51,614 nt of DNA from Catajapyx aquilonaris (GCA_000934665.2 JYFJ02002761.1:1-51614); one strand, 5' to 3'. Positions 1,141 to 46,726 are shown, counted from the stretch's first letter. Translations and numbers: made by a program. Notes: generated from the letters alone by a model not told the origin.

Positions 1141-1308
1141 TTTATTACTGTACGAAATCAGTGCGGAAGACAAAAAAGTGCTATTTTGTACACCCTTATT
1201 GGCTTACCAAAAGCCATAACATCACAGTTTCCACTTGAAAAAAAAACCAACTCAAAAATAATGTTAACTCATATCACAGTGAGCCCTACGAGCAAAATAT
1301 GCATCACA
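1141..1308 (-). promoter_or_regulatory. 3'UTR of BFM gene 1: three K boxes, one GY box, poly(A) signal
   Basis: Minus strand: TGTGAT 1303-1308, CTGTGATA 1272-1279, CTGTGAT 1221-1227, GY box GTCTTCC 1165-1171, AATAAA 1141-1146. K and GY boxes are established miR-2-family and miR-7 seed matches in E(spl)-C/Brd 3'UTRs. Confidence 0.85.
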
Positions 1309-1517
1309 AAAAAAAAGATAACTATCTGAACTGTACAATGATTGTGCTGGCAATGATATGCAATTTTCTCGGAAAAGTAACACAAACTAAAATATATACC
1401 AGGGCTACACTGTACAATACAAAAATGAGATCTCGGAATGAGTCGTCTACACTTGACAAAATGCAGAATAAGGATACTTTTTTCAAAAATACACACGGGC
1501 AGAACACTAATGAATGT

Positions 1518-2037
1518 CTAATATGCGTAGAATTCATGGCAGGGCACGACTGTCCCCACAACCGACGCCTGTACTTCTGGTCGTTGACACGTGCTGACAG
1601 CCAGGGAGTCGTCCAAGTACAAATCCCTCTGGTCCGGACACGCTGTCCAGAAAGTGCCAAGATGTACCGGTATGGGTCTATGCTTCTGCTCCGCTTCATC
1701 CTGCCGATACAACCGAAGACACCCATCTTGATGCATACCGCAAGTAGAGTACGGTGCAGCCCACAAGTACCCAGTCAGTCTAGCCTCCAACGCCTCATTA
1801 GCCGCATTGTCATCAACCTCCGACGTATGGCACGACGATGCAACAGGACACTCGGCACCTTCAGGCTCCTGTCGCTTCTTGCGACGAAGAAGTGACAACA
1901 CAGGTCGTACAACCTATAAAGACACACAACAATCAAAACACATGTACTAAAGTATGAAACAAGAGCCTTAGGAGGCAGACGCTTACCTTCTTAATCTTAT
2001 GAACTTTGGCAGCCACGGCCTTCCTGCAAACCTCCAT
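1518..2037 (-). CDS. E(spl)malpha: Bearded-family member (E(spl)malpha-like Neuralized inhibitor), 148 aa; exons 2037-1987 and 1913-1518
   Basis: Spliced product MEVCRKAVAAKVHKIKK|VVRPVLSLLRRKK (basic amphipathic B domain), DDNAANEALEARL (NxxN motif), PIPVHLGTFWT (G motif). 73-nt intron gtaagc..tttatag, phase 0. Exact orthology to malpha is inferred. Confidence 0.9.
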
Positions 2038-2139
2038 TACAGCAAACCACGTGCGTTGAACGATGAGGACAAGAGGAGCGAACCGGTAGTTCTGAGTGTT
2101 GAACAAGGTCTGATGGAACCGGCCGGCCTCCCCGAAACC

Positions 2140-2262
2140 TTTTATAAGCATGGCTGCCGTGACGTCATGGGGTCACGCGTGACGTCTCGTGGCAGGTGTG
2201 TGCCAGACACGAGGCAAAACTCTCCCCAGCGTGGGAAAAAGGGTCCGGGCTACGTTCCCAGG
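2140..2262 (-). promoter_or_regulatory. Promoter of BFM gene 1
   Basis: TATAAAA (minus) 2140-2146; TGACGTCA 2160-2167; CACGCGTG 2174-2181; N boxes 2186-2191 and 2208-2213; GCAGGTG 2192-2198; Su(H) CGTGGGAA 2230-2237 facing TTCCCAGG 2255-2262 across 17 bp. Confidence 0.8.
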
Positions 2263-5686: not shown

Positions 5687-6386
5687 CTACGATCTCTGCA
5701 CCATCTTGTGAGCAACAGCCAGGAGGGCATCAGGCGGTTGGAACTGCTCCTTTGGATTTGCGTGCCCGAAGACGTTCCAGTAAGCGCATGGTACCTTCTC
5801 GGAAGTGGTTTGATGATGCCCATTCGAAGACAAGTCTGCTCCAACCTCTGGTTCCTCCTCCTCCTCCTCCTCTTGTAGCTGTCTAGCCGGCGGGGAAAGC
5901 AAGCATATGCAGTAAGATTCTGGATCCTTCTCTTCCTCCTGGGCCTGGTGCTGCTTCTTATGTGGTGGACCCAAGTTCAAGGACGAGCTTTCCCTCAACA
6001 TCTGCCGCTTCCGTTCCAAAGCCTCGTTCAAACGGTTGTCCTTCACCAAAGATTCTTCCTCCTACACCAAAAATTGTGGCGTTAGATATTTGCTACTGTA
6101 CCACACTAGCTATGGCCAATATTTGCTATTGTATAACACCTACCTGTGCGACAGGAATCCGGCAGTCTTCCACATGGTGGTCCGCAAAGGCATACAGCTC
6201 CTCCAGTACCTTCCAGTACAAATTCAGATTGACCCGAGCGGTGCTGGTGACCTTTCTAGGCAGCATTGGCTTCACAACCTGAACCCAACAAAGAAGTGTT
6301 AACACACCACACTTACACACTGGTCAAATGTATCTTACCTTCTTCATGGTTCTAGACTTGAGGCAAACTTCCTTCCCAACGCACAT
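5687..6386 (-). CDS. Divergent Bearded-family protein, ~185 aa; exons 6386-6339, 6278-6144, 6061-5687
   Basis: MCVGKEVCLKSRTMKK|VVKPMLPRK...CRIPVAQ|EEESLVKDNRLNEALERKR. NxxNExLE motif; two phase-0 GT-AG introns (60 and 82 nt) give one continuous frame; first intron at the same KK|VV position as gene 1; TATA upstream, GY/Brd boxes downstream. G and D motifs not recognisable. Confidence 0.8.
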
Positions 6387-6486
6387 GGCTTTCCAGAAAG
6401 GAACACTGCTGGAGAGAGACTTCGGATGTGTTTAGCTGGTTGGAGCTCGGAAGGGAAAAAGCAGTGGGCAAAGGCCAGGGGGAAGC

Positions 6487-6763
6487 TTTTATACGCGTGC
6501 CCGGCGCGAGCCAGGTGTGTGCCCAACTCGTGCCTGGGCCTTTGGGGAGAGGGGGTTGGAGGGTGAGGGGAGTGGGGACCCTGGGTTTTTGGGGAGGGTT
6601 TGTGTTCCACGCCTGGAATTACTCTGGGGATGTTTCGGGGAAGAATGGGATAACTATGATGCACTTGCCTGATTGTTTTGTTGGGAGGACACATGCGGTT
6701 GTTGGACAAGGGCACGTGTGGGAAAATTGTGCGTGAGAACTGGGGTTAAAAGAGACACTCACG
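6487..6763 (-). promoter_or_regulatory. Promoter of BFM gene 2
   Basis: TATAAAA (minus) 6487-6493 abutting CACGCG 6494-6499; CAGGTG 6512-6517; N box 6527-6532; CACGTG 6713-6718; Su(H) sites TGTGGGAA 6717-6724 and CGTGAGAA 6732-6739. Confidence 0.78.
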
Positions 6764-11916: not shown

Positions 11917-11937
11917 CACCTGCCACACTTTCCCACG
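11917..11937. promoter_or_regulatory. E-box/Su(H) composite, copy 1
   Basis: CACCTGC-CACACT-TTCCCACG. Confidence 0.7.
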
Positions 11938-14801: not shown

Positions 14802-14822
14802 CACCTGCTCGACTTTCCCACG
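14802..14822. promoter_or_regulatory. E-box/Su(H) composite, copy 2
   Basis: CACCTGC-TCGACT-TTCCCACG. Confidence 0.7.
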
Positions 14823-16852: not shown

Positions 16853-16873
16853 CACCTGCGCTACTTTCCCACA
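16853..16873. promoter_or_regulatory. E-box/Su(H) composite, copy 3
   Basis: CACCTGC-GCTACT-TTCCCACA. Confidence 0.7.
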
Positions 16874-17906: not shown

Positions 17907-18019
17907 AGGTTGCGCAGAACCGGCCGCACCAGCCCATTCCCGCGCTTCATCTCGAGCTGTGAGGACGTGCCTTTAGATCTCTCTCCATCAGTGCTCAGTG
18001 TGTTCAAAACAACCCAGAC

Positions 18020-18741
18020 ATGGCTACTGTTGTGGACTTTGAGGAGCAGCCAATCTCACGCACTTACCAGTACAGAAAGGTCAGTATTGTGCCTAATTAG
18101 TGATAATTATAATTTGTGTCGATAAGACCGGTCCTAAGTAGACCATGAGCTGTAGAGTGTGTACTTATAGGTGTGTCTTTTTGTAGGTTATGAAGCCTAT
18201 GCTGGAACGTAAGCGACGTGCAAGGATCAACCGGTGTTTGGATGAGCTGAAGGAGTTGATGGTTGGTGCCCTGCAGGCTGAAGGCGAGAATGTGTCCAAG
18301 TTGGAGAAGGCGGATGTGCTGGAGCTGACTGTGCGTCACTTGCATAAGCTGAAGCACCAGCAGGTACTGGGGATGACACCGGAGGTCAGCTATGCGGACC
18401 GATTCAAGGCTGGGTTCACCCATTGCGCCAGCGAGGTGTCAAAGTACTTGGCGGCCGTACCTGGTGTCGACATGACCGTGAGTGCCCGACTTCTGGCCCA
18501 TCTGGGTGTGTGTCTTCGCCACATGGAGAAGACCTCGCCGAGCACCCTGCAGGTCAGCGTGGCCAATTCTTACACGCCACCCAGTTCACCTTTGGCCGAG
18601 CCGGTCAGCCCTGCATCGCCGGTCAACCTGAGCGGCCGGTACTGTGTGGTACCGCTGCCCAGAGCCGAGTCCACGCTGTCCGTCTGCAGCGAGAGCAGTC
18701 AGTCGTCTTCGGCCAGTAATCCGATGTGGCGACCGTGGTAA
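18020..18741 (+). CDS. E(spl): E(spl) bHLH-Orange-WRPW repressor (mbeta/mgamma-like), 204 aa; exons 18020-18079 and 18187-18741
   Basis: [45 protein letters not shown]...KLEKADVLELTV; Orange domain FKAGFTHCASEV...RLLAHL; C-terminal WRPW; intron gtcagt..ttgtag. Confidence 0.97.
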
Positions 18742-21958: not shown

Positions 21959-21979
21959 CGTGGGAATTGGAGGCAGGTG
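21959..21979. promoter_or_regulatory. E-box/Su(H) composite, copy 4 (inverted)
   Basis: CGTGGGAA-TTGGAG-GCAGGTG, directly preceded by N box CACAAG 21953-21958. Confidence 0.7.
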
Positions 21980-22573: not shown

Positions 22574-22594
22574 TGTGGGAAAACTAAGCAGGTG
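22574..22594. promoter_or_regulatory. E-box/Su(H) composite, copy 5 (inverted)
   Basis: TGTGGGAA-AACTAA-GCAGGTG. Confidence 0.7.
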
Positions 22595-26430: not shown

Positions 26431-26562
26431 TTCCTGGAGCGCCAAAATGGACGTCATTCTTTCCCGCGATCTCTTCCTCGTGAGCCGGACCTCTCTTGGC
26501 CAGCACGTGGTTTTGCATGTGGTTCGCTCTGTGCGGTACTTGTTCCTCGATCGGCTGTGCCA

Positions 26563-29500
26563 ATGTGGAGCAGCAGGATGGATCTGTCCAGCAGCAGCAT
26601 CCGACCTCAGCATCAGCAGATAGACGCCAACGAGATGCCCATCTCCAGAACTCTGCAGTACAGAAAGGTAAGGATCGGTGTCCTTCACGTGGCAACCAGG
26701 TTTAGACCTGGGTGATGTGCAGGTAGTGTCGCGTCAGTTAGGCGGGAAGCTGAGGCAACTTAGACCATTTTGTTTGGAGTGATTTTAGACTCGACTTTAG
26801 TGGAGTTTTAAAACCGGGTTTATTCTAGTTGATTCAATTTTCGGAGCAATTATTCGGTCAATTTTAGGAAAATTATTATTCAGTCGGTCATAGCTAATAC
26901 TTTTCTCAAGTGAAATATTATTGAAAACATTGCACCATCCTGCCTGCATCATGCACGTTTATTAAAGAAATCAATTTTGATTAACTTCCCTGACGAACTT
27001 GAATCAGAATTATTTGCAGCTGCTATGTGAAATTCATGAAAATTATATCTAATAATTGAGGCTTTTCCTTTAATTATTTTAGTTGCAATAACGCGATTAA
27101 AAAAATTACTCATCAAATTATTTCGAGAGTATTTTTTAAAAATTGGGTTATTGGAATATAATTCAAGGAAAAGCGTCAATTATGAGATATATTGCATGAA
27201 TTTCCCTGATTTTTCACTGCAGTTGCAAATAATTCTGATGCACGTTCGTCAGGTACTGAAAATTGATTTCTCAAATAAACGTGCATGATGCAGGCAGGAT
27301 GGTACATCGTTTAAGTAAAACTTCTCATAATTGTCAATTGCCTTTAAACTCCGGAGTATAGGCTAATTATGTCTCACAACCGTGTAACACCCGGCATTTG
27401 ATTGTATACATATATGGTTGAAACCAATAAACCTGTTCTATTCAGTAATATGCTTATTAAATGGGCATATGCGCGCTGCATAATAGTCAAATTGTACAGA
27501 AAATTGACACGAGCTGTCACATGTCAGACAGCAAATTAGATTTGCGAATCAAGGGCAAACGCACCGGTTTTTCCCAATTTTTTCATAATTCGCAATAAAC
27601 CGTCCGGTCTGACAGGTTTTAACATGAACCGGTTTCCTTTTTCACAGCCTCTAAGTGCAGCCTCATGTATGCATTTGCTGATTTGCAATTGCACCACAAT
27701 TTACTATTTCCACATCAGGTTCTATTTGTTGCTGGCAAAAGAGGTTAATGAGCTCATATTGTTAGTGCATGCCGCCATAAATGACTTCTTGAGTCATCCA
27801 CAGAATGACCACACTCAGTAGAATTGTCGACCCCAGCAATCTGACTTTTTAACTTTGGGCAGTGCACCACCCTGTAGAATCCGCTCAATGAACCACACAC
27901 GCGATGCTTTCATCAGCACGAAAACTCCACTGCATAAGTAGGACTTATCTCAATTTGTGTCATGCAACGGGCATGGGAGCGGAAAATGCACTGGCCTCCT
28001 TTAATTGCCTGTAAGGGATTTTTAGCTGGAAGGTGACATGCAAACAGGACTTATCTTCGAGCGTTTTTTTTGTAACACGTTTGGCGTATTGTTACAGGTG
28101 ACGAAGCCTTTGCTGGAACGGAAGCGACGGGCACGTATCAATCGTTGTTTGGACGAGTTGAAGGATCTGATGGTGGGCGCATTGCAAGCAGAAGGAGAGA
28201 ATGTGTCCAAGCTGGAAAAGGCAGATATCCTGGAGCTCACCGTCAGATATCTACACAAGCTCAATTCAAACCACATGCTGAATCCTATGGAAGACGCACA
28301 TCGCTTCCAGGTTAGTGTTGTCTCCTTAAAAACATTTAAAAAATAAACAAATTAAAGCACTTAATTTGCGAATTGATGCTATTCCAACCACAAATATTTT
28401 ACGACCTAAAATGGGCATCTTTGTTAGAAAATCGCGGTGCTTCTGAGGATAGCTTCTCCAAACTGGTTGTGAACCTGCGTAATCATGAGTGGTGTGGGTG
28501 TATTTCCAGAACAGATGTAGACTGCGGTTAATTGGGGGTTTAAAACAATTATCGTCATTGTCAATTTCCAAGATGTAGCATTTCTAATAATACATCAGTT
28601 TCAACCCGTGATCCCGGTACGCATCTCACATAGTCTGCTAAATATCCCATATGTGAATAATAGTGAGATTGTGGTCACGCGAAAGTGAAGCCTACACTTA
28701 TTTGCACTAAATTTTAAGCAGACAATATTTTGCCGTTAAATAATGAGGAAGTTATCAAATTGCAAAATCCGACAGGAGAATGGTTTTTAAAAACTTGTTG
28801 TTAGGTTGGTTACGCAGCATGATCGTTGCTAGCACATAGCACATAATAATATTTACTAGGATGTTGGACAGGTATTGCAAAGCAATTCAAGCATAAAAAC
28901 ATCATATATGTGGCTCGAGAAGGAGTGAAAAAGTCACCCTCAACCTATACGCAACCATAATTAACTTATTTCTTATTTTTCTTACAAAAAGGGCAAATTG
29001 GGTAGAAAATATGGAGAATTCACGTGACATAACTTTTAAGTGATTTTTTGCTGGCATTGAATGAAAAGTGAGCTACAGTTTAAAAAAAAAACTCTCCTGA
29101 TATTGCTAAGTTCCTTACTTTCAAAGTTGCGAGCATCTGAGTCGGATATGTCTGCAAACCTTTTCAAAAGTGCTTTGAAAGATTCATGCAGTACTTATTA
29201 CTACTATAGCCCTTTAATAGGTTATATGTATAAATCGTATAATTTAGTAGAATATTCAAAGAGGTTTCCTGCGCTGATAATGAATGTATTTTTGGATCAT
29301 GTCCTGAGACTAAGCAACTAAAATGGTATTTTTATTGGCTCTCAAAATTGATATAAATATTGAATCACTTCTGAATTAATACACTCTTATTAAAAACGCA
29401 ACAATTTTGTGCACATTTTCAGAGTAGCCTACATTCTATCAACAGTGCACTCAAAAAATATTATTATCAATATCCCAATAATTTACGAATCCGAATTTTT

Positions 29501-30278
29501 GCAATTAGGATGACGTGAAAACAAAATAGTAAAAATCCCTTTCGTTTCTGCTAAGATATGCACTATCAAAAAATCAAGTAAAGCCAGTAAAATAAACAGC
29601 TAGTAATGTTGGTTGTCTGCTGTCAGGAAAGAATTCAAAAATCATGAAATTCCTCCTTATTAATCACTAAACATGCCACAAAATTGGAAAATTCGCTTCA
29701 AATCGAGCATTAAATGATGTCTATATATAAGTAGTATTTTCGAACATGTTTCTGCCAATATAAAACTCATCAGTAAATAATACAGTACCGTATCGTGCAA
29801 TACCTTTACGATGACATTCCCGCCATCTCTCGTCGTACATCCAGACTAACTGTTGGCTTGTTTGTTTCCACAGGCGGGCTTTACGCATTGCGCCCAAGAG
29901 ACGAGCCAGTACTTGATGAAGGCCCCCGGAGTGGACGTCCTGGTCAGCAGGCGTCTTATGTCCCACCTCAGCTCCTACGTTGAGCAGCCAGGAGACATGG
30001 AGGATAGCCCATCAAGCAGCTGCGACGTGCCTCTCAGCGTCCAAGTGCCTTCGCTCCAGCGACCCTATTCTCCTCCAGTGTCTCCAGTCACACCAACAGA
30101 GCCAGCACCAGAATTCTACAGGGAACCACTGAAGGACCTGCGTTCTCATCAACAACACTACGCCATGTCGTGCACTCCGACTGCTCAGGACTTGTCCAAA
30201 CCTTTGACCGGTCTGTTGATGCCTGCCAAAGGGATGCCGGTCAGACCAGAGCCGCAGAGAATGTGGAGACCATGGTGA
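26563..30278 (+). CDS. E(spl): Second E(spl) bHLH-Orange-WRPW repressor, ~240 aa; exons 26563-26667, 28098-28310, 29874-30278
   Basis: MWSSRMDL...[36 protein letters not shown]...[21 protein letters not shown]...MWRPW; two phase-0 GT-AG introns. Start could instead be ATG 26578. Confidence 0.95.
26934..27303. mobile_element. MITE/foldback-like element in intron 1 of E(spl) gene 2
   Basis: Perfect 30-bp inverted termini ACCATCCTGCCTGCATCATGCACGTTTATT (26934-26963 / 27274-27303), imperfect complementarity extending to ~125 bp; AT-rich non-coding core; no clear TSD. Confidence 0.75.
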
Positions 30279-30534: not shown

Positions 30535-31001
30535 TGTGATATTTTAGAATAGGTTGAGCTGTTCTGACGTGCGACTTGCACTCAAAATCACTGCTAGTTA
30601 TTTGCAATGTCAGAGTGAACAGCATAATTTTGGCTATTTTGCTGCTCTTCTTCCTGTATCATTTTCTACAGCCTGAGATGTTGGCGTGAAATTTTTAGAA
30701 TTTTTTCTTATCTACCTTTCTATGTAGCGATATTTTGTTCTTTAATGCGACATTTGAAAGCCAAACTAAAGTTCCGAATGTTTTCATTTGTTATAAATGC
30801 TTCCAAATGATCTCATGTTGTAAAAAAAATATTACTAGGACCTTCAAAGCGTTAAAGAAATCTGACTTGAGGTCCGTAGATCAGCTTTTATGTAAAGTAA
30901 AATAGTAGTGTCGAATATTAGTGGATTTTTTAATGGTTTAAGTTTTGTGTTAGCTGGATTGGGACCATAACTTTGGGAACTGTGATATTGATTTAGCTTT
31001 A
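30535..31001 (+). promoter_or_regulatory. K boxes and Brd box in E(spl) gene 2 3'UTR
   Basis: TGTGATA 30535-30541; CTGTGATA 30980-30987; AGCTTTA 30995-31001. Confidence 0.78.
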
Positions 31002-31961: not shown

Positions 31962-33707
31962 TCAAAAAGTGCACGAAGGAACATTTCTAGGAAAATCGCA
32001 TTTTTGATTCTTCGGATTGAAAACCAGCCCGTTTGCGCACTGGTCAATCCCTTTCAACCCATTCATGCAAATGTAAAAACTAGAACAGTCGTTCTCAACC
32101 GGATAAAAACCATCCTCAGCACCGCAAACACCCGCGCAATCCGAAACATTACTCGTGCATTGGTTCGACTTCGGATTAAATATTTTGAACCGACTGCACT
32201 CCTGCGCAATAGGAATAAACCCTCCGTACTGGTATCTGCCGCAATAATAGTAAGTACCTGTGCACTTGTACTTCGTTGGCTGGAAAACGCCCTGAGCTGC
32301 GCAACGCCCTATCTCCGCCGCGCAATCTTTATTGTCGCCTAAGTACACACATTGTCGACTTGCCGGATCGAACCCTTCGTCATACCTGCGACATTTGCCA
32401 ACAACGACTTTGAACCCACCGCCATTCTGGTCCGCCACGCATCTATAAAAGTACCGGCAGTAATTCGGTATCGCCATCGGACCTGATGCGCTCGTACATA
32501 TGTCGTCCGGCAATTGAATCGTACGACAATCGGCATACCCGTTGTAAGAGCAAGGGTCTGCCAGGTAGTCCAAGTCAGGGTTAAACACTTGGGAAGATTT
32601 GCATACCCTGTGGGTGGGAGAGACGCCTGATTCGTCGCATTGGTAGTATTTGGAACAATTTTGGAAATCAGGGAATGACGTGAGGGTTTCGGGGCATTGG
32701 AACATCTCGGTATTGCATTTCCTTTCAGGCGATCCTGGCATGCACTCTCCTTTGTAGCAATGCCAGTCATATCCGCAGTACTGCAAATCCACATTCTTCT
32801 CTATTCCTTCGGCGTTTTTGAAGCAAAGTACCGCCTTGGAGCAATCGTCGGAACATGTCGGGCCACCGTCACAATTAGAGATTGACGCTACTCGAGGTGC
32901 TAGAGGTGAGAAGGACGGAGCTTCCTGACATTCCTTGCCCTGCAGAATTAAATAAGTCATAACTCATAATGAACGATCAGCAATTATGCTTATAAAAGTT
33001 TTAGTGAAGAGAACTGTAAGTTTGTGAGCACATTATGAGTCAGTTGGGAACACTAAACCAGAACATGAAAAACTTACTGTGTCTTCTGGAACGCAGGTAT
33101 TCCTCATGGCAGAGAACATGCCTTCAGGGCATTTTATGAGTTGGAATTGGAGGTCTCCATCTTCATTCTTGAAGCAGAAGTAAAACTTGTGGCAGTCGGT
33201 GGGGTTGGGAAAAAGGCCGGGAGAGGGACACATGAACCTGAAGGAGAAATGGGGCCAGTTGAAAACATGTAGGAGAAGTGAATAAGTTGGAGAGATTTCA
33301 ACTTATGGATATATAAATAAACGGAAGGCCGATCAACGGTTAGTGCTGTAATAAATATGTCAAAATAAAATTAATAAGTGATGGAATGCTTTTCTTTTAG
33401 ACCATGCTGTTTGTGGACAATGGCTTTCTGATTAAGTCAAATAAGTGGAGCATAAGTTCCGCACGTTATACGTATGCACCACACAAACCTATAGGTGGAA
33501 ATGGACTGAGAGCTTAGGTCGACATTATAATAAGCTTCAACATTCATCGAAATAATGTGATATACTCACTCGGTTCCATTTGAAGTTTCTTGCGATGTAA
33601 CCAAGTTGGCAGAAACTGACACCTGCGAGTAATGTTAAAATTACACAATTAGCACAATGTCAGAGTTATGAATATCTCACCAGAAATATAAAGGATAGGA
33701 GCGACAT
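31962..33707 (-). CDS. Secreted peritrophin-like protein with multiple ChtBD2 (CBM14) domains, ~405 aa; exons 33707-33681, 33622-33570, 33237-33078, 32939-31962
   Basis: Signal-like MSLLSFIFL|VSVSANLV; six-Cys repeats such as CPSPGLFPNPTDCHKFYFC...C and CGAEDGFYPVENDCSSFYIC...CANGLVFNPKNQKCDFPRNVPSC; splice phases 0/2/0 consistent; TATAAAA 33766-33772; AATAAA 31847-31852. Confidence 0.88.
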
Positions 33708-34207
33708 CCTGAGTGCTGCGACAATGCTGGTGTCCCACTAGATTCAGCCAGAATAGGTTGCGGATTTTTATACATTTTATGCTGCAACTTTTATTGTAGG
33801 CCTATAAGTCGACCCATGACGTTAGTGCAACAAGGTGAAGCAATGCTACAATTTTGTCATATTAACGGTAAAACTAATTCAAAAGTGTGCAATTTTATGA
33901 TCCGCCATATAAGATTAGCATGCCCCCACCCATCATGCAGGCAAAGAAGTCCTTTGATACACACAGCATTGCAAAAATATATGGTTCTTCAACAGATAAC
34001 ATGAGGTTTATGTGGAACGTAATTCCCCGAAGAGCTTTAACTATATGGGTTACTATCTCACGTCCGTGACACAGAAATTCTGAATTTGCAAAAATTTAAT
34101 TTTGTCTTCCTGTAAGAAAGAAGATATTATATACGCAAATATTAATTCAAAACAATTAGGTTTATTCAGTAGCTTGTTACAAATGGTGTGACAGTGATGA
34201 AAAAACC

Positions 34208-37154
34208 TTAGGGGTGTGGTCTATCACCACAATTGACCTTACTAGAGTAATTGCAATTACCAGTATTCTCATCGAAAAGAAAACCTTTGTAACAAGATCT
34301 AGAAATGATCGAATATGATCCATCATCATTTCTAATGCACAGCAAAAACTTTTGACAATTAAAAGAATCTGGTAATGTGTCTAAATTATATTTGCAGTCA
34401 CTTGCTGGGGAATATGTGGTAGAAACAACAGTGGTTATTGGCATTGCACGAGTACTAGCTCGACAAACAACGCGGGAAGCATAGTTACATTGTCCAATAC
34501 TTTCGTCAAATAAAAATCCGTCGTAACATTTCCGGCGTAGCGATGAGTACGATCCATCTCTTTGACGTATGCAAATGAGGAAATTTTGGCAATCACTGAG
34601 ATCAGCATAAACTTGTCTGTCGTACATGCATGTGCCAGCAGTAGTCGTCATTTCTGTCGTGGTGGACACAGTATATATTGTTCTACCATTACATTGGACA
34701 TTGTCGGCATAATTGCATTGGTTACGGGTATTATCATAGAGAAACCCGTCGTAACATGATCTCAATACAGTAGTGTATGTTCCATCGCTGTTTCGAACAC
34801 ATATCCAAAACTTCTGGCAATTTAAGGAATCAGCATATGTTTCTCCAGTGTAACTGCATCTGCTTGGAATCATAGTTGTAGTGGAGTAAGGAACCGTTGT
34901 TTTCACAACCTGCGTACGTCCATTGCATTGAACACGAGATGCATAGTTGCAACTGCCAGTAGTCTCATCATACAGAAATCCACAGTAGCAAAATCTAGTT
35001 GCTACGTAATAGCTGCCATCGTAATTTTTCAGACATACGTAGAATTTTTGACAATTTTGCTCATCTGCAAAGGTGTACTTATCATACTTACATAGGGTAG
35101 GGTGGGAGGTGGTAGAGTAAGTGGTAGGAGGGGAAGGGGTAGGCCTGTCATTACAATTCACTTTTTCGGCATAATTGCATGAACCAGTAGTTTCATCGAA
35201 TAAGAAACCATTGTAGCATCTTCTACTCAGGATTGAATATGATCCATCCCATCCACGGATACAGACCAAGAAACTTTGGCAATCTTCGTTGTCTGCATAG
35301 GTTTCCCTATCGTAGGAACATTGAGGTTTAGAAGTGGGAGGGGAGGTAGTCAGAGGGAAGGAAGAGGTGGTGGTTGCCTTAGGCGTGATTGTTGAAGATG
35401 TCGTTGAGGTTGCAACTGTGGTGCTCGTTGGTGTAGTTATCGTCTGTTTGGTTGTTTGTCCCGTTGGCTTGGACGAAGGGGTTGACAATGTGGGCCTGCT
35501 CGTTAGTGTAGTTATCGTCTGTTTGGTTGTTTGTCCCGTTGGCTTGGACGAAGGGGTTGACAATGTGGGCCTGCTCGTTGGTGTAGTTATCGTCTGTTTG
35601 GTTGTTTGTTCAGTTGGGGCATATGGCATGGTGGTGTCGCTCGTGGTTGAAGTCAGAGTCACTGGGATATTACCTGCGTATCGTAAATGAGAAATACCAT
35701 TCATAATGTCTAATCCGCAATCTCCTGTGCAACCCCCTTCAATGAAAATTATCCGGAGGTTGGTTTTGATGTTGTTAGATTAAATACCCAGAAAGATATT
35801 TGAAAATCGGTACCCCATCAAATAATAATCTGAAATACTCATAATAATATCTTAGTAATTTCCATACATGATAAATTTAATTCGTGGCATTGACTTACTC
35901 TTTTTGTGACAATTCCTAATGACTCATGTCTCTTCACCTCCCTAATGATTGTAAGTCCTGACATGAACATGTCCTGGTATATTGTCAGCACTGTATAACA
36001 AAACACCTTCCTCAAAAACTACCAAAACATGTCTGATTCACCTCCGTACTTTTTATTTCAAATGCATTGCATCCTTTTCCATTGTACGCCATCTTTCATA
36101 TGTTCCGCGTTATATCCTGGAATTTAGTTTTCCACAAATTATCCCATTCTTATGCAATGTTCTTGTCGGGATCATAACCAAATTTTCGCTCTGTATTGGC
36201 GCTGATATAATGCATCACATAATATACTTTTACCATTTTCATATGTACTTTTTTTATTTGATTGTAACTTATCATACATTAGAGTTTCCTTTGCTAACAT
36301 TTGATACATTTTGTGTCCTCCTTCTTATACTAAATGTCCTTGGCTCATGTACGTACCCATACCTACAAAGTGTACAGTATTGACAGAGTCCCCTAATCTA
36401 CTTGTATATGCAGTCAAACCTTTCATATTCTTCAATTTATATAATTTTTGCTTTAGATTCTTTTTTATGTAATGTTAGCGTCAAACGTCAGTTGCCTTAA
36501 CGTTATTCCTGCCCTTTATTGAAGAATAATATTTGCTGAAATACAATTATATTTAGTTATGTCATGCATAATCTGTTGTATAATATAACTTTTGGAGGGG
36601 GTCTCATTTTTCTATCCCAGTATCCTTTATTTTTATGACATCAGGATTTTCTCTGCGTAAAAGATTGGATATCTAATATTAAATTTTCAGTATTATTTCA
36701 ATTTCCCGTTTAGACCACATAATCCAATTTCTCCTTCACTTGAAGAATTCCGCGTTTTCTTAGGTCTACTCCATGAATTTCAGAAATTAACAACATTACC
36801 AACATTATAGAGTGGAAACAACATATTAAACAGAAATAATTGTAGTAATCCACGCTAATATAAGCATTATTCTTGAATTTGTGTCCATAATTTTCTCTGT
36901 GTGTGTTCATAAATATACTTTCCACGAACCACTGAAGAAAAACGCATACTCGTACAATATCTGTAGTATATTTTACAATAATAATGATGACAATAAAGTA
37001 AGAAATAATTACCCAAAATTTCTGCCGTGACCATCGCGCTGGCAAGCTAAAATGGCAATAATTTCTGATTACTTTTATGCTATGCAAATCCACAGTCACT
37101 ATCAAAATCACTTAAACGAAATATTACCAGGAAATATCCGTCGAAAATGTTCAT
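34208..37154 (-). CDS. Mucin-like peritrophin: Thr/Pro/Ser-rich tract plus five ChtBD2 domains; main exon ~35673-34208, putative 5' exons 37154-37128 and 37046-37013
   Basis: Five repeats of C-x-Y...AD...CQxFxxC...DGSY...RxCYxGFL(F/Y)D...CNY...VxC with Thr-rich linkers; AATAAA 34161-34166. The 5' exons (MNIFDGYFL|LASAMVTAEILG, phase-compatible with the 35673 acceptor) are tentative and more exons may lie between. Confidence 0.75.
35422..35609 (-). repeat. 75-bp coding tandem repeat, 2.5 copies
   Basis: Units start at 35422, 35497, 35572; encode QTTKQTITT(P/L)TSRPTLSTPSSKPTG; near-identical DNA. Confidence 0.95.
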
Positions 37155-39931: not shown

Positions 39932-40925
39932 GCCAAATTTCATTTACAGAAAAGCGAGAAGCTAAATCAATATTAATTTCTGTAGGTGTAAAAGGAAATA
40001 GAGCAGTACAATAATAAATGGGATAAAGTAATCGGTTCTTTGAGATAGCAAAAGGTGCAATCGTCACTGGAAATCAACAGGCTATACAGATTTTCCCAAG
40101 CGAGTATATATATTCTATCCATTTTCGTCATGGACTGCGTGTTGTTCCTAAGCTACTACGCAATATATAACTTAAGTTAATGAATGATGACAGTCATTAC
40201 TCCACACTCCACCTTACTCCACAATTTTGTAAAATTGCTAGAAAATTCCCTCTTACTCTACTGATTGCCCAAGTATAACTTACGTCAAACATGACATTAG
40301 ATTGAATTAATTAAATCAACTCACTCCACCTCGGATTGTGCGCATCCAATTTGTGATCGACTGACCTACACACATGCCAAACTACGACGTCGTAATTTCA
40401 TCCCACAGGCCACACCTATGTCTACATCAAAACTGCATCAAAGAATTTCAAAGCATATTGCTAGCAGAGGACTTTCTCAAATTGTATAAAGGGTATGACT
40501 CTCCCAATTAAAACATGTGATCCGCGCAAATTGCATGTGCTCTGGGTGATCCCTCAGTATAGAGTTGTCTTAATGACAGGCACTCTCATGATAGAACTTC
40601 TTACTCCACAAAACCCTTCAAATAAAACCATGAAAGCTTTTACTAGCTGACACTATAGGAAAAAGTGTAAAAAGTATCAGCATACATTCCAACAGAGAGA
40701 AACTATCAGTAGCCCAATTAAAACATTTAAATGTCACCAGTACAACAACTGTCCTCCAGAAGATGCGTTTTCAATGACTTGTGTCGGTCATATTAAGCTA
40801 ACACTGTATAGCCGGTGGAAAGAATCAAGAGACATTTTTGCCGATTATTGCCAATTGACTGAAATAATAGGTATAGTTGAAAATACATGGAGGGACTATC
40901 CAGCATACTCTCTGCACCACGATAT

Positions 40926-41819
40926 GCAGGGATTATAGACAAAATAATAGGAACACCTGCAAAAAGCGGTTGAAATTACATGTCTGTTTTATTGGCGAAA
41001 ACTGGAGAGGTTACAAAGATGACTTTTACCATGTTTTGAAGCTCCGTCGATGTACATTTGTGTGTGTGCAGATGATGCAAAAATCACGAGAAGGGGAGAG
41101 AAATAAAAGACGAACGACACCCCCCCCCCCCCTTCCAGACCCTATTTTTGACCAAAGTGTTCCAGGCTTGTCATTTGAAAACCAAAATAGTTACGGATAT
41201 GAACTGTACTGAGTTTTGAATCTCTGTCGATTTTACGTTGTGATATATAGAGATAGATCAATAATCACGCGAGGGGGAGGAGGAAAAAAAGAAATGACAC
41301 CCCCACCTCCCCGGCACTGCTCTAAAGAATGTGAGTAATATTTAATTAGAAAACCAAAACAGTTACAGAAATGATCTGCACTGGGTTTTAAGCTCTATTT
41401 ATGTCATTTTGTGTATACAAATTGATAAAAAATCCGCTATTTTGTCCGCGTGATTATTGGTCCATCTCTATACCACACAAAGTTAAATCGATAGATCTTA
41501 AAAACTCAAAAAGTTCATATCCGTAAGACCGTAACTATTTTGGTTTTCAAATGACAAGCTTGGAACACTTTGGTCAAAACAGGGGTCTGGGTGTGTGTCG
41601 TTCGTCTTTGGGTTCTCTCTTCCGCCCCCCCCCCTCCNCCCCCCCCCCCACAATACCTCGTGATTTTTTTCGTCATCTGCATACCCCACAAATGTACATT
41701 GACGGAGCTTCAAAACCTGGTAAAAGTCATATTTGTAACACTTCCAGTTTTAGAATAAAACAGAAGCGAAATTTCAACCCCTTTTTGGAGGTGTTTCTAT
41801 TATTTTGTCGGTCCCCTGT
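40926..41819. mobile_element. Foldback-like element with ~350-bp imperfect inverted arms and internal sub-repeats
   Basis: ~40926-41271 is the reverse complement of ~41447-41819 (e.g. TTTTGACCAAAGTGTTCCAGGCTTGTCATTTGAAAACCAAAATAGTTACGG); the AAAACCAAAA.AGTTAC motif recurs at ~41177 and ~41350. Confidence 0.8.
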
Positions 41820-42612: not shown

Positions 42613-45600
42613 ATGCAGCTATCAATTATACGATTCGGTCTCTTCATGTTCACCTTAACATGCGTCCTTTACAACCGCATTGATGAAACTATACAGTTCA
42701 TCATCAGCATATATGATTTTGGAGGAATCACTACGAAAACTTACGACTTCATTATAGGTAAGTTACACAAGAAAACACTTTTTAACTAATAAATTAGGCC
42801 TGGTGCTACTGCTGGTGCTGACAGATTGTCTGCTATTCAGAATCTATAATTATTATTACTTATTTGAGTCCGGAATTTAAGGCAAATGCCTATTCAGTTC
42901 TTTTTAACAGTTGGGACCGTTTTGTGAAGAGATCTAGCAGTTTCATAAGTGCAGGTGCAGGATGTGGAAAATGTAGGTTTTATAATGCCTAAAATGGCCT
43001 ATTTCGTGGTTTTGGGAACTATTTTGCATATTCTGACTTTATGCGACTTTTCATGCCTATTTGGCCTTTTTTGGGATAGTTTTTGACCTTTTTGCAGTAA
43101 TTTCGAGACTTTTTAGGCCTATTCCGAGCCTACAATGTATTCCTTCAGAAGCATGTTTGTTGGCGTGGAGCCTTTCTGGTCTGGTCGCATATGCCAAATA
43201 TTTTTTCTAAAATTTTCTCTGAATATTGGAAAAATATTTGGCAACATATTGTGCAAGTCTGGTGCAAGTGGAAACTGGCTAAGCGGTATAGTCCAGAGCA
43301 AGTGGCACTTGCTTGGGGAGGTGTGGTGGTGGAGATGGTAAAGTCTTGGCTTGCTGAGTGAAAGGCCCCAGGTTCGATCCCCGCCTGGGGAACTTCCTTT
43401 CACCTGCGTCGGGAGGTGTCTGGCAACCTAACCTCCTGGGGGACTGCACATGGCCCAAAGGTTTCATGACATTGCACCTGCACAAGTGTCCCCTCCCCCA
43501 AAAAAATCCATATTTTGAAAGTGAAACATTTCGCCATTTTATAAGTTCAAAGGGTGCAACAATCATGCAATGTATTACTGAACCCCTCATGAACTTCAGA
43601 AATGGGTTATTAAAAGATCATCAATATTATCATTATTATCATTAATTATTGTTGTTATTATTATTATATAGTTGGAGCTGGTTCAGCAGGGTGCGTCCTG
43701 GCCAGTCGATTGTCCGAAAATGAAAATATCGAGGTCTTGCTTCTGGAGTCCGGAGGACATCCCTACTTTCCCCCAGTTGGGAATATTCCTCTCATGACAA
43801 ATGCATTGCAACAGACGCCATATGTACAGGAGTACCTGACAGTACCACAGAAGCATGCTTGTGAGGGTCTGCACGAAAGGGTAATGTTATACAGTATAAT
43901 AGATGTATTTCCCTTATAAAGCTCAATAACTGAGACATTGAAGTCGGTTGTATTTCCCCCTGGACGATTGAGGTTCCTTTTTCTCTCTCTTTCAGAGGTC
44001 TTTGTGGCGTCATGGTCGTGGATTGGGTGGAAGCAGCAGCATAAATTACATGATGTACTTTAGAGGTCACAGGGAAGATTTCGACAACTGGGCCCAGAAA
44101 GGGAACCATGGCTGGAGCTATGAAGATGTTCTCCCATACTTTGAGAAGAGCTTAAACAAAGAATACGATGGAAAATATGGTAAGAATATTACAGTATTCC
44201 TTTCATCATGCTAATGCCAAGACTCCTGACACAATCAAAGTAGTGACACCATTGTCTTTAGGTACGGTACGAATATTATTTTGGATCACTAAAAATCATA
44301 ACAAGTTATCAATGCAGACAGGTGTCACTTTAATATCTGTATATAACTGTAACTAAAAATACAGTGTACAGTACATGATAATATCTTATTCTTACATTCA
44401 AGAAGAACTTCATCAAAGGGACTGGCCAATCCAACTGTCTCTGAGTTTATTGTCTCATCGACCTTTTGAAAGTGCATTTCTACAAGCCGGAGAACTCCTT
44501 GGGTACAAGTCCTATCGCCACCTGAACACAACCCAAGAAGAAGGTAAATACAGAGCTGTAGGGCCTGTGGTAGCCTATGATTTTCTCATTCATTTTTAAT
44601 TGCTGAGACTTTTCCTTCTTACTCGCAGGATTTTGGAGTGTACCTGTGACCCAGCGATCCGGTGCCAGATGTAGTTCCTACTTTGGTTTCTTAAGACCTG
44701 CTTTGATAAGGCCTAATTTACATATCATGACCAGGACTCAAGTACATAAAGTGAGTGTTTCTCTGTTTTTCTACATACAGAGAATAGCCCATTGCACAGG
44801 GTGTTAAAATAGACCTCCCTATTCCTCAGAGGATCATTTTATGAAGTTATTATGGGTATCATTGGTCTGTTCAACCTGGTTACGTTATGAGCTTCCAATC
44901 GTCAGAATAATTGCAAAACATTGTACTGTATTATGGAGTTAAAACGTGTTCCTAATTTTCCATTGTAGATTTTAATTGACGAAAATAACATCGCGTATGG
45001 TGTACAAGTTAATAGATTTGGAAGAATTTTAAAGCTGAGGAGCCGAAAGGAAGTGATATTGTCTTCTGGAGCAGTTTCGTCTCCAAAGTTGCTTATGTTG
45101 TCTGGGATAGGACCTGCCGACCATCTCAAGTCTTTGAAGGTGATCAATAAATTTACAAGCAATTAATTAATGCGGCTTATGCTTCAATACTTTGATAAGC
45201 AGATTCCAGTAGTCGCCAACTTGTCAGTGGGCGAAAATCTCCAGGATCATTATGGAACATTAGTTTTTCCTTTCATTATCAACAAAACCGTTTCATTCTT
45301 TCCAAAGAGAGACATTTCCCTCGTAGGGATGTGGGATTATTTCACTCGAGGGGAAGGTAATATTAGTGACGCCTGCATATGCCATATTTGGTGACAATGT
45401 GCTGATTAAAAACATCTGGAATAACTATAAATTTTATTCCAGGTATTCTAACGTCTTCACTAGTTCAAGGATCAGCATTTGTGAAATCGTCGTTGAAGGA
45501 TATGCATTGGCCTGATATTCAAATCCTCTTCATTCCTTTAGCGATGTCCAACTTTGCCTCCAAAGGCTTACTAGGTCTCAATGTCAGGAAAGATGTAAGA

Positions 45601-46726
45601 AGCATTTTACTCACATCATATACTCCAACATTTTCCATCATATGCTACATTGCTTCCAAATTGTCAACAAAATATTAAAGTCTGCTATAGGCCTGTGTAC
45701 AGTCTGTTATACAGTTACTGATACACAGTCCAATCACCTTGTAGACACAATAATTGTGTGTTACAGTTAATCGACCATATGTTCGGACCTCATGAAGGAA
45801 GAGATGCTTTCAATTTCCACGCTATAATTGGTAGGCCCAAAAGCAGAGGCCGACTCTGGCTGGCGGACACAGACCCAACCAAGGAACCACTAATCGACCC
45901 AAACTACTTTTCACATCCCGAAGATATGGATATTGTCCTGGTAGTCCGGTTAGTATACTGGCCTTTGCAGTTGTGCCAGTGACCACTTATTAGATTAATT
46001 TTGAATATACGACATGCCTATAAGTTTTAAACATGTAATTATTCTTGCCATGCATAAAATGTCATAATGCCATCTTCTTTTTGGTACCAGCCATTCAACT
46101 GTCCATCAATATAAGTAGAACTGCTCCATTTCAAGATATTGGCGCAAACTTACCTGTTAGTCCAATACCTGGTTGTGAACACTTCACCATGCCGAGCAGA
46201 AGGTATTGGGAATGCTACGCGCGCCACTTGACGATAACCGCTTATCATCCAGTTGGCACATGCAAAATGGGGCCAAAATCTGAAGAAACCGCAGTGGTGG
46301 ATCCGCATTTAAGGTAAGTTATAATAAGTACTATACATTTTAATCGAAGACTACTCTTATCCTGGCATAATCCAGCAATTTGTCAAAACTCGAGGAGAAC
46401 TTATTTCCTCATGAAATATTATTTCATGGCACTTACAAGAGTCATGAAGTAATTCTGCAGAAGAAAAGGACTGTGGGACGAGTTACACACTTCTTAGCAT
46501 TTAATAATATAAAGTTGTGTATTTTAGGGTGCATGGAGTGAGTGGCTTGAGAGTGGTGGATGGTTCTGTCATGCCCACTCTGGTCAACGCCAATCTGAAT
46601 GCTGCCATCATCATGATAGCAGAAAAGGCTGCTGACATGATAGTGGACGAGTGGAGATTAAAATGGACTCCATTCCCCGCAGGTGTGGGTCTAGGAAGCG
46701 GAAAAGAACACAAAAATGAACTCTGA
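42613..46726 (+). CDS. GMC oxidoreductase (glucose dehydrogenase-like), 11 exons: 42613-42757, 43672-43880, 43996-44179, ~44403-44543, 44629-44750, 44969-45139, 45203-45356, 45443-45594, 45767-~45948, 46091-46313, 46528-46726
   Basis: FAD-binding [69 protein letters not shown]; catalytic [12 protein letters not shown] and [25 protein letters not shown] 46831-46836. Phase conflict at intron 9 (see findings). Confidence 0.9.
43315..43670 (+). mobile_element. tRNA-derived SINE-like element in GMC intron 1
   Basis: A-box-like TGGTGGAGATGG 43327-43338, B box GGTTCGATCCC 43371-43381; shares GACATTGCAC.TGCAC with the 39.3-kb copy; (TTA)n-rich tract ~43625-43668. 3' end uncertain. Confidence 0.62.

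Follow-up and report, generated by a model that had tools for sequence, protein, structure and literature searches.

A Bearded-family gene with an Enhancer-of-split-like N-terminus in the E(spl) complex of Catajapyx aquilonaris: a possible old patch from a bHLH gene

According to the available text of Dearden 2015 (PMC4575448), the E(spl) (Enhancer-of-split) complex is a linkage of two completely different gene types and did not arise by duplication. The locus presented here raises the question whether sequence has nevertheless passed between the two types: the first-pass annotation had noticed that exon 2 of a Bearded-family gene, BFM2, resembles a degenerate basic region and helix 1 of an E(spl) bHLH gene, and had offered a local chimera or a common origin of both families as explanations. 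We analyzed the whole stretch of 51,614 nt from Catajapyx aquilonaris, called the window in the following, the first 30 kb of which hold an arthropod Enhancer-of-split complex. On the minus strand are two Bearded-family genes, BFM1 (two exons) and BFM2 (three exons); the plus strand carries E(spl)1, with two exons, and E(spl)2, with three exons and both introns in phase 0. All gene models are predictions built from open frames, GT..AG borders and homology, and their coordinates are collected in Table 1. Pfam matches both E(spl) products, E(spl)1 with HLH (1.8e-13) and Hairy_orange (8.9e-18), E(spl)2 with HLH (1.1e-15) and likewise Hairy_orange. Among named proteins, those closest to E(spl)1 are m-beta/m-gamma of insects, with 50–58% identity, while the top matches overall reach 70%. 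Searching the window by tblastn with the four proteins of the complex and three foreign BFMs revealed no further E(spl) or BFM relics. The rest of the window contains chitin-binding (CBM_14) genes and one GMC oxidoreductase.

Table 1. Features of the E(spl) complex in the window; positions are counted from the first letter of the window, and a caret marks an exon-intron border.
Feature	Position	Strand	Remarks
BFM1	1518..2037	-	exon 1 2037-1987, intron 1986-1914, exon 2 1913-1518
BFM2, three-exon gene	5687..6386	-	6144-6386 of the window comprises exon 1, intron 1 and exon 2
BFM2 exon 3 with stop	5687..6061	-	
BFM2 intron 2	6062..6143	-	82 nt, GTAGGT..TAG, phase 0
BFM2 exon 2	6144..6278	-	135 nt, 45 codons, ends CAG^GTAGGT
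BFM2 intron 1	6279..6338	-	60 nt, GTAAGA..TTCAG, phase 0
BFM2 exon 1	6339..6386	-	16 codons from the first ATG (6386), ends AAG AAG
19-nt 5'UTR block of BFM2	6401..6419	-	17/19 identical to E(spl)1 5'UTR 17978-17996
BFM2 promoter	6486..6739	-	TATAAAAG at 6486-6493, E-box CACCTG 6512-6517
BFM2 Su(H)-type sites (putative)	6717-6724, 6732-6739	-	motif match
E(spl)1, bHLH-Orange-WRPW gene	18020..18741	+	exon 1 18020-18079, intron 18080-18186, exon 2 18187-18741
E(spl)2, bHLH-Orange-WRPW gene	26563..30278	+	exons 26563-26667, 28098-28310, 29874-30278

The three open segments of BFM2 join via canonical GT..AG borders, all in phase 0, into a single frame of 185 codons that includes motif 2 of the Bearded family, and retention of either intron leads to an in-frame stop. 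A second in-frame ATG of exon 1 at 6347 gives the start M-K-K quoted in the first-pass annotation, whose upper coordinate of 6386 is explained by the position of the first ATG. Intron 2 is specific to BFM2; it is lacking in BFM1 and in the BFM gene of an independent genomic locus (L001). Within exon 2 the E(spl)-like patch comprises residues 1–30 (6278-6189) with V-V-K-P-M-L-P-R-K, A-R-V-N and L-E-E-L. The last residues of the exon (D-C-R-I-P-V-A-Q) are BFM-like, compare E-C-P-V-A in BFM1, and exon 3 carries motif 2, D-N-R-L-N-E-A-L-E, at 6040-6014, containing N-x-x-N. For exon 2 by itself, AlphaFold2 in single-sequence mode predicts one helix, which spans residues 8–38 (mean pLDDT 77.7). In the region of motif 1 the maximal hydrophobic moment is 0.63 in BFM2 compared to 0.85 in BFM1.

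The resemblance could also stem from a faulty gene model or from a pseudogene, with exon 2 skipped, another donor used, or BFM2 being a decaying duplicate. Exon 2 is in phase 0 at both ends, so that skipping of this symmetric cassette would keep the frame, and it contains an alternative in-frame donor, AAG^GTACTG, after Y-W-K; however, the donor at its end is closer to the consensus than this internal one. BFM2 lacks motif 3 and a Pfam match, as a decaying duplicate might, but its continuous frame across three segments with motif 2 in register, an intact promoter with TATA, E-box and Su(H) motifs, and matches to GY-box and Brd-box in the sense 3'UTR speak against a model artefact or pseudogene. 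We consider this explanation very improbable.

To which family BFM2 belongs was assessed by comparison with BFM1 and its relatives. An exhaustive phmmer search with exon 2 of BFM1 gave four matches, among which P0003 was the sole BFM; the other three, proteins of 1000–1500 residues matched in repeated stretches, were left out. A word-indexed search for relatives of the same exon gave no match. The resulting two-sequence profile recovered ten BFM relatives, 7 of them with Pfam ESM4, and the BFM set includes sequences from Schistocerca, Timema, Phlebotomus and Thrips. One locus from a metagenome scan (L002) was dropped as a bacterial locus merely containing N-A-A-N-E-A-L-E. The alignment of 12 members shows motif 1, an invariant N-A-A-N-E-A-L-E, a P-V-H-F..G-x-F-x-W block and a C-terminal Q-x-x-E-x-Q block, and 8 of the 12 match ESM4 (PF15952). 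Both a profile search (3.4e-7 to 5.6e-5) and tblastn (P0013, E 1.9e-8; P0009, 5e-8) place BFM1 in the family, and it has the canonical features K-K^V-V-R-P-V-L, D-N-A-A-N-E-A-L-E and G-T-F-W-T. Judged by its sequence, BFM1 is thus a member of the Bearded family.

In BFM2, ESM4 was absent at E ≤ 10 from exons 2 and 3, as from exon 2 of BFM1, and the tblastn matches of BFM2 to other BFMs have E values of 0.46 (P0005) and 0.79 (BFM1). No orthologue was found in any of the sequence searches. The sole link of BFM2 to the BFM family by search is the hhalign alignment of residues 53–100 (P 0.0012), and D-N-R-L-N-E-A-L-E falls on the columns of the invariant motif 2. Of motif 1 the start V-V-K-P-M-L is kept, while the residues following it depart from the family pattern. 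Motif 3, the G-T-F-F-W beta-hairpin, is missing from the BFM2 translation, which has only V-P-C-A-Y-W-N-V-F. Since motif 3 and ESM4 are lacking, the grounds for assigning BFM2 to the Bearded family are motif 2, its gene structure and position, and a profile score that is weak. By these sequence features BFM2 is a much more divergent member of the family, in which the junction, motif 2 and a C-x-x-P-V-A stretch have been preserved. This motif of about 10 residues, N-x-A-N-E-(K/R/A)-L, is described in the available text of a recent preprint (bioRxiv 10.1101/2025.09.29.679213) as the Neuralized-binding motif; according to the accessible parts of the same source and of PMC6070291, BFMs are Notch targets that bind Neuralized via motif 2 and block its interaction with Delta.

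All four genes of the complex share the border between exon 1 and exon 2 in the form previously described: exon 1 ends in AAG and is followed by a phase-0 GT..AG intron and by V-x-(K/R)-P-x-L. The introns at this junction measure 73 (BFM1), 60 (BFM2), 107 (E(spl)1) and 1430 nt (E(spl)2), and exon 2 starts with V-V-R-P-V-L, V-V-K-P-M-L, V-M-K-P-M-L and V-T-K-P-L-L, respectively. When the other BFMs are considered, K-K is found at the end of exon 1 in 10 of the 10 sequences covering that side, and a start of the type hydrophobic-hydrophobic-(K/R)-P-hydrophobic-hydrophobic in 12 of 12. The L001 locus reads AAG AAG^GTAAGC..TTCAG^ATG CTG AAG CCT, with a phase-0 intron of 90 nt. L001 is the locus of the predicted protein P0010, which has 30 extra residues exactly between K-K and M-L-K-P that correspond to the retained 90-nt intron, and P0003 begins with a translation resembling a pyrimidine tract (..F-L-Q) directly before I-L-K-P, as expected from read-through of the intron. 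A lack of the intron in other BFMs, which the first-pass annotation had named as an argument against its proposal, is therefore not what we observe. Throughout the family, Bearded motif 1 normally begins with the K-K^hydrophobic-hydrophobic-(K/R)-P-hydrophobic-hydrophobic junction and its phase-0 intron, a junction that mirrors R-K^V-M-K-P-M-L in the E(spl) bHLH genes. Since all 10 relatives covering this region have K-K^hydrophobic-L-K-P and L001 has the intron, the junction is no peculiarity of BFM2, and V-V-K-P-x-L in BFM2 can be explained without a chimera. On the E(spl) side, 101 of 120 relatives are spliced to R-K-V-M-K-P, 6 read through with an end in Q, 11 start inside exon 2, and 2 show other arrangements. 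As far as the accessible texts go, the exon phases of the HES1-7 genes are 0-0-1 (PMC3396596), and HES introns are regarded as ancient (PMC1310631).

The similarity beyond the junction was compared at nucleotide level. The peptides quoted previously for BFM2 and E(spl)1 are exact on translation, and the match of 16 out of 18 nt at the start of exon 2 was reproduced; over the first 27 nt of exon 2 the two genes agree at 20 positions. For the other pairs the first 18 nt give 15 (E(spl)1 and E(spl)2), 13 (BFM2 and E(spl)2) and 11 matches (BFM1 and BFM2). A degenerate 18-mer with up to 3 mismatches has just three sites in the window, and these coincide with where exon 2 begins in BFM2, E(spl)1 and E(spl)2; at least 3 matches were obtained in 0 of 100 shuffles. 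The 16/18 identity is real, yet it does not constitute independent evidence: of the 16 aligned degenerate codons that encode the same residue, 7 are identical, where codon usage would predict 5.2. An excess at synonymous sites between BFM2 and E(spl)1 is thus absent, and the nucleotide identity follows from the identity of the amino acids.

At protein level we compared the alignments with shuffled controls. A Smith-Waterman alignment of BFM2 exon 2 with E(spl)1 scores 40 (shuffles 23.7 ± 3.9, score reached by 10 of 5000); with E(spl)2 the score is 36 (reached by 51 of 5000), a value which is approximate as exons 1 and 3 of the target were mis-framed. Shuffle tests of the exon-1 peptides are weak, with 96, 195 and 394 of 5000 shuffles reaching the score for BFM2/E(spl)2, BFM2/E(spl)1 and BFM1/BFM2, respectively. 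The tail of BFM2 exon 1, S-R-T-M-K-K, departs from the BFM consensus (V-H-K-I-K-K type) towards S-R-T-Y-Q-Y-R-K of E(spl).

Profile comparisons gave stronger results. For these we left out 18 of the 120 E(spl) matches, which have truncated or read-through N-termini; the BFM profile excludes P0007 and P0011, near-duplicates of P0005 and P0008, as well as P0006, which has no N-terminal region. The retained intron of 30 residues was trimmed from P0010 and the 30 residues before I-L-K-P from P0003. Using hhalign, BFM2 aligns with the profile of 104 E(spl) sequences with a score of 32.4 (P 3.7e-4) over 29 columns with 59% identity, beginning at S-R-T in exon 1, taking in K-P-M-L-x-R-K and A-R-(V/I)-N, and ending at L-x-E-L. 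Two gaps of 2 and 5 residues are needed within 38 positions. When only residues 1–61 of BFM2 are used, the score is 32.0 (P 5.8e-5); none of 150 full shuffles reached it (mean 12.9, sd 3.0, max 23.9). Keeping the core K-K-V-V-K-P-x-L fixed and shuffling the other 54 residues, we found 1 of 200 reaching the hhalign score. A cross-check with HMMER gave 11.3 bits for BFM2. Out of 3000 shuffles in each case, 1 came up to this value when the whole sequence was shuffled and 5 when the core was kept; the other BFMs obtained −2.4 to 2.8 bits. Nine other BFMs compared to the E(spl) profile by hhalign had P values of 0.03–0.96, and only P0005 and BFM1 were aligned in intron register. Among the 10 BFMs, a good N-terminal score against the E(spl) profile is confined to BFM2. 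The alignment of exon 2 thus exceeds shuffled controls, and the likeness to a degenerate E(spl) basic region and helix 1 is borne out by the profile scores.

The features on which a bHLH factor depends are nevertheless absent. Pfam HLH (PF00010) was not detected in BFM2 exon 2 at E ≤ 10, and the Orange domain and WRPW, both present in E(spl)1 and E(spl)2, are missing from the BFM2 translation. In the basic region BFM2 has Pro instead of the DNA-contacting Glu and V-T-S-T instead of Arg-Arg. Having lost Glu and Arg-Arg and being devoid of loop, helix 2, Orange domain and WRPW, the predicted product cannot be a bHLH factor; with the key residues gone and no second helix, neither DNA binding nor HLH dimerization is expected.

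In the non-coding regions the situation is mixed. A block of 19 nt in the 5'UTR links BFM2 to E(spl)1; not one dinucleotide shuffle out of 2000 attained its score of 28. The 10-nt core of this block has only two sites in the window, one in each of the two genes, and in both the block is located about 40–45 nt downstream of the expected start site at a similar distance to the TATA motif. Among the five other 5'UTR pairs only BFM1 and E(spl)2 score, owing to an 11-mer containing CACGTG (33 of 2000 shuffles). The E-box of BFM2 lies within a 12-nt block that is identical in BFM1 and also conserved in L001, and the upstream alignment of BFM1 and BFM2 was reached by 0 of 500 shuffles. Intron 1 of BFM2 is not similar to the intron of E(spl)1 (98 of 1000 shuffles reach the score), and the nucleotides of exon 1 give an ambiguous, uninformative picture. 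Su(H), E-box and TATA motifs in the promoters and box motifs in the 3'UTRs are common to the BFMs and E(spl) genes of the window.

Taken along its length BFM2 is a mosaic: it resembles BFMs in the E-box block of its promoter, at the end of exon 2 and in exon 3, and E(spl) genes in the 5'UTR block, the tail of exon 1 and about the first 30 codons of exon 2. This arrangement fits an internal patch better than a fusion at a single junction. The earlier suggestion of a local chimera accordingly finds moderate support from the profile outlier, the excess over core-fixed shuffles and the 5'UTR 19-mer, but not in its form of a bHLH start joined to a Neuralized-binding exon. Such a two-piece fusion at intron 2 was rejected, the end of exon 2 already aligning with BFM1 and the family. 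Recent gene conversion was likewise rejected, synonymous sites showing no excess and the introns being dissimilar. Because the introns are unlike, a codon excess is lacking and exon 1 is ambiguous, any transfer must be old.

We therefore propose, as a tentative reading to which we give a little less than even chances, that BFM2, a Bearded gene, contains an old patch derived from E(spl) and still acts as a Neuralized antagonist. Long ago, sequence of an E(spl) gene would have overwritten motif 1 of a BFM1-like duplicate by ectopic gene conversion or by partial duplication, a step possibly eased by the junction common to BFM and E(spl) genes. The patch, closest to E(spl)1, would extend colinearly from the 19-nt 5'UTR block across the last part of exon 1 and into exon 2 as far as about codon 30. 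It would since have decayed, with the DNA-contacting Glu turned into Pro, the Arg-Arg pair gone and two indels acquired; a residue identity of 59% with indels would be roughly what near-neutral decay leaves over such a time. The gene would be switched on by Notch/Su(H) and proneural input via its Su(H)/E-box/TATA promoter, the motifs of which are present while their activity is presumed. Its product, by analogy to the family, would bind Neuralized through the N-x-x-N motif 2 of exon 3 and block Delta endocytosis, with the N-terminal helix possibly serving as a replacement for motif 1.

Several points weigh against such a patch, among them the non-significant pairwise tblastn result given below, the unmatched Pfam HLH and the two gaps of the profile alignment. 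The head of BFM2 exon 1 is weakly BFM-like and would split the patch in two; the trace of a transfer at DNA level is confined to the 5'UTR 19-mer; the comparison of BFM2 with E(spl) was chosen post hoc from a scan of the entire window; and the partners of the conversion, almost without homology, 12 kb apart and in opposite orientation, make the mechanism awkward.

Some of these points favor a different reading, namely that BFM2 is a fast-evolving Bearded duplicate whose helix drifted, within a basic composition rich in Leu and Val, starting from a family motif, K-K^V-V-K-P-x-L, that was already E(spl)-like. S-R-T, R-K, A-R-V-N, L-E-E-L and the 19-mer would then be due to chance or independent selection. 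A Pro that follows Lys often acts as a helix N-cap, and the protosplice consensus reads AAG^G. Pairwise tblastn of BFM2 against E(spl)1 in the 51.6-kb window was not significant (E 3.7–4.3), which agrees with this reading, as do the unmatched Pfam HLH, the missing synonymous-site excess, the unrelated introns, the gapped alignment and the selection of the finding after the fact. Core-fixed shuffles do sometimes reach the score (1/200 and 5/3000), but this places the core-fixed excess at about 0.002–0.005, next to a profile P of 6e-5 and a 5'UTR block not reached by any of 2000 shuffles. Coincidence would have to account for three colinear and partly independent signals that point to one partner, and for an excess that is absent in the nine other BFMs. 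We regard it as rather unlikely.

A further possibility concerns the whole family. The first-pass annotation had suggested that the basic B domain of BFMs arose from a duplicated E(spl) 5' end. When the nine BFMs other than BFM2 were compared to the 104 E(spl) sequences by hhalign, one match of 15 columns was obtained, with a score of 18.6. This alignment straddles both introns in exact register, which is striking, yet with P 0.075 it is not significant, and at family level the proposal is suggestive. Lys-rich segments offer several AAG^G sites, and our rating for the coincidence of register therefore ranges from 1 in 5 to 1 in several hundred. The junction motif of the family may have arisen by convergence at an AAG^GT protosplice site. 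That the Bearded family as a whole descends from a duplicated 5' end of an E(spl) bHLH gene, including the first turn of the basic helix, seems unlikely to us.

In the fuller version of a deep common origin, the Bearded family would have formed when new coding sequence was joined to such a duplicated 5' end, which brought a Notch-responsive promoter along with exon 1, its phase-0 intron and the beginning of the basic helix, and BFM2 would have kept more of the ancestral sequence than other members. Apart from the alignment in exact register, this would be in agreement with the phase-0 intron at the junction in both families, the HES1-7 phases being 0-0-1 (PMC3396596, accessible text) and HES introns being regarded as ancient (PMC1310631, accessible text), and with the distribution of BFMs, which the available text of PMC4575448 confines to insects and crustaceans and always places beside E(spl) genes. 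The common promoter motifs and 3'UTR boxes in the window would follow as well. However, besides the insignificant family-level score, just 2 of 9 single BFMs (P0005 and BFM1) have their best E(spl) match in intron register, and the sample of 12 BFMs includes no named crustacean. BFM2, lacking motif 3 and a Pfam match and having an extra intron, is the most derived BFM seen, which fits a young and fast duplicate rather than a relic. Survival of a non-coding 19-mer since the origin of Pancrustacea would furthermore be unexpected unless it is functional. We consider this fuller version doubtful, slightly more so than the descent of the family as such.

The old-patch reading of BFM2 and the deep origin differ in their consequences. 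If the former is true, a Bearded gene with an E(spl)-derived N-terminus would represent a flow of sequence between both classes. If the latter is true, growth of the E(spl) complex would, contrary to the accepted view, have proceeded by duplication, and the regulatory code of both classes would be common by descent; BFM2 would be a relic of the ancestral state, or proof that both families still exchange sequence at the junction. In either case the start of BFM2 hints at an old exchange of sequence, or even common ancestry, between families thought to be unrelated. The family-wide junction (K^hydrophobic-x-K-P-hydrophobic-L with a phase-0 intron) provides a concrete handle on a birth of Bearded genes from an E(spl) 5' end; such an origin, if true, would explain the common Su(H)/proneural promoters and 3'UTR boxes by descent and not by convergence. 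New in our analysis are the family-wide Bearded junction, the E(spl) excess specific to BFM2 and the 5'UTR block common to BFM2 and E(spl)1. We found no proposal of a BFM-HES link or of an E(spl)-derived Bearded N-terminus in the literature searched, and the word "intron" is absent from the main text of PMC4575448, as far as this is available.

Compared to known systems, BFM2 combines features of two. As in the Bearded family (in Drosophila Brd, Tom, E(spl)m-alpha and m4), the protein is small and its gene lies within an E(spl) complex; the promoter has Su(H), E-box and TATA motifs, the 3'UTR has Brd-box and GY-box matches, exon 1 ends in K-K followed by V-V-K-P-x-L, and motif 2 has the form D-N-x-x-N-E-A-L-E. 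Unlike other members, it has a longer E(spl)-like helix in place of motif 1, the basic amphipathic helix, lacks motif 3 (G-T-F-F-W) and an ESM4 match, and has an additional phase-0 intron; Bearded-family genes in Drosophila are not known to have introns. With E(spl) genes of the m-beta/m-gamma type (HES) it shares the phase-0 intron directly before V-x-K-P-M-L, 7 of the first 9 residues of exon 2, and A-R-(V/I)-N and L-x-E-L in the same order; it further shares the 19-nt 5'UTR block with E(spl)1, and one cluster and one promoter code with the E(spl) genes. In contrast to E(spl) bHLH proteins it is devoid of the basic Glu and Arg-Arg, loop, helix 2, Orange domain, WRPW and a Pfam HLH match, and outside this region the protein resembles Bearded proteins. 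A third comparison is with chimeras that arise in tandem gene clusters through ectopic conversion or partial duplication: as in these, BFM2 is a mosaic of two neighboring families with colinear patch boundaries, and the presumed donor is strongly conserved while the recipient evolves fast. It differs from them in that the accepted view does not count donor and recipient as paralogues, and in that the patch would be old and degraded.

The first 26.3 kb of the window holds 21 of the 22 matches to the Su(H) motif, the Notch-pathway site type. We found five copies, all of them intergenic, of a composite element in which a Su(H) site and the proneural E-box GCAGGTG are separated by exactly 6 nt; this arrangement did not occur in 100 shuffles. 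The five composites look like enhancer modules combining Notch and proneural input.

Both E(spl) genes (bHLH-Orange-WRPW) show a paired-site architecture with an inverted Su(H) pair at an identical 25-nt offset. Of the Bearded-family genes, BFM1 has a single site and BFM2 two in direct orientation. E(spl)2 also retains a second phase-0 intron (28310/29874) that separates the bHLH from the Orange domain between R-F-Q and A-G-F-T-H-C. This intron is lost in E(spl)1, and the corresponding junction lies within one exon (18380–18420).

We compared the BFM1 promoter (2150–2205, minus strand) with that of the independent Bearded-family gene of locus L001 (5770–5895), a metagenome contig unrelated to the window. 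They have in common an 18-nt E-box block with 17 of 18 positions matching, a TGACGTCACGG element just 5' of TATAAAAG, and the comparison also revealed an initiator-like C-C-A-T-C-A-G about 30 nt downstream of the TATA box. This likeness points to deep promoter conservation inside the Bearded family. The 5'UTRs of BFM1 (2038–2118, minus strand) and E(spl)2 (26452–26562, plus strand) share the 11-mer GCACGTGGTTT, which includes CACGTG; its score was reached by 33 of 2000 shuffles.

A repeated element that contains a long G/C run broken by an N lies 5' of BFM1 and recurs near 41 kb, there as two inverted copies. The element is likely to be a repeat of mobile or satellite-like type. Translated strings similar to it appear in the ORF list of the window. 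Genes flanking the complex encode chitin-binding peritrophin-A (CBM_14) proteins (three genes) and a GMC oxidoreductase (several exons).

Location of sequence features in the window
Feature	Position	Strand	Remark
Su(H)-6 nt-GCAGGTG, copy 1	11917-11937	-	motif match
Su(H)-6 nt-GCAGGTG, copy 2	14802-14822	-	motif match
Su(H)-6 nt-GCAGGTG, copy 3	16853-16873	-	motif match
Su(H)-6 nt-GCAGGTG, copy 4	21959-21979	+	motif match
Su(H)-6 nt-GCAGGTG, copy 5	22574-22594	+	motif match
E(spl)1 inverted Su(H) pair	17828/17853		upstream of E-box and TATA
E(spl)2 inverted Su(H) pair	26256/26281		upstream of E-box and TATA
G/C-run repeat upstream of BFM1	about 2380-2440
G/C-run repeat, inverted-pair member	40880-41210	+
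G/C-run repeat, inverted-pair member	41500-41750	-
CBM_14 genes and GMC oxidoreductase, together	31962-35779; 48246-49697; 43614-46726	-; -; +
BFM1 3'UTR (presumed) boxes	1165-1310	-	three K boxes, one GY box
BFM2 3'UTR (presumed) boxes	5255 and 5433	-	motif match
E(spl)1 3'UTR (presumed) boxes	18753 and 19105	+	motif match
E(spl)2 3'UTR (presumed) boxes	30535-31001	+	motif match

In all four genes, what is presumed to be the 3'UTR contains sense-strand matches to motifs of the following set: K box (TGTGAT), GY box (GTCTTCC), Brd box (AGCTTTA). These motif names come from the Drosophila literature.
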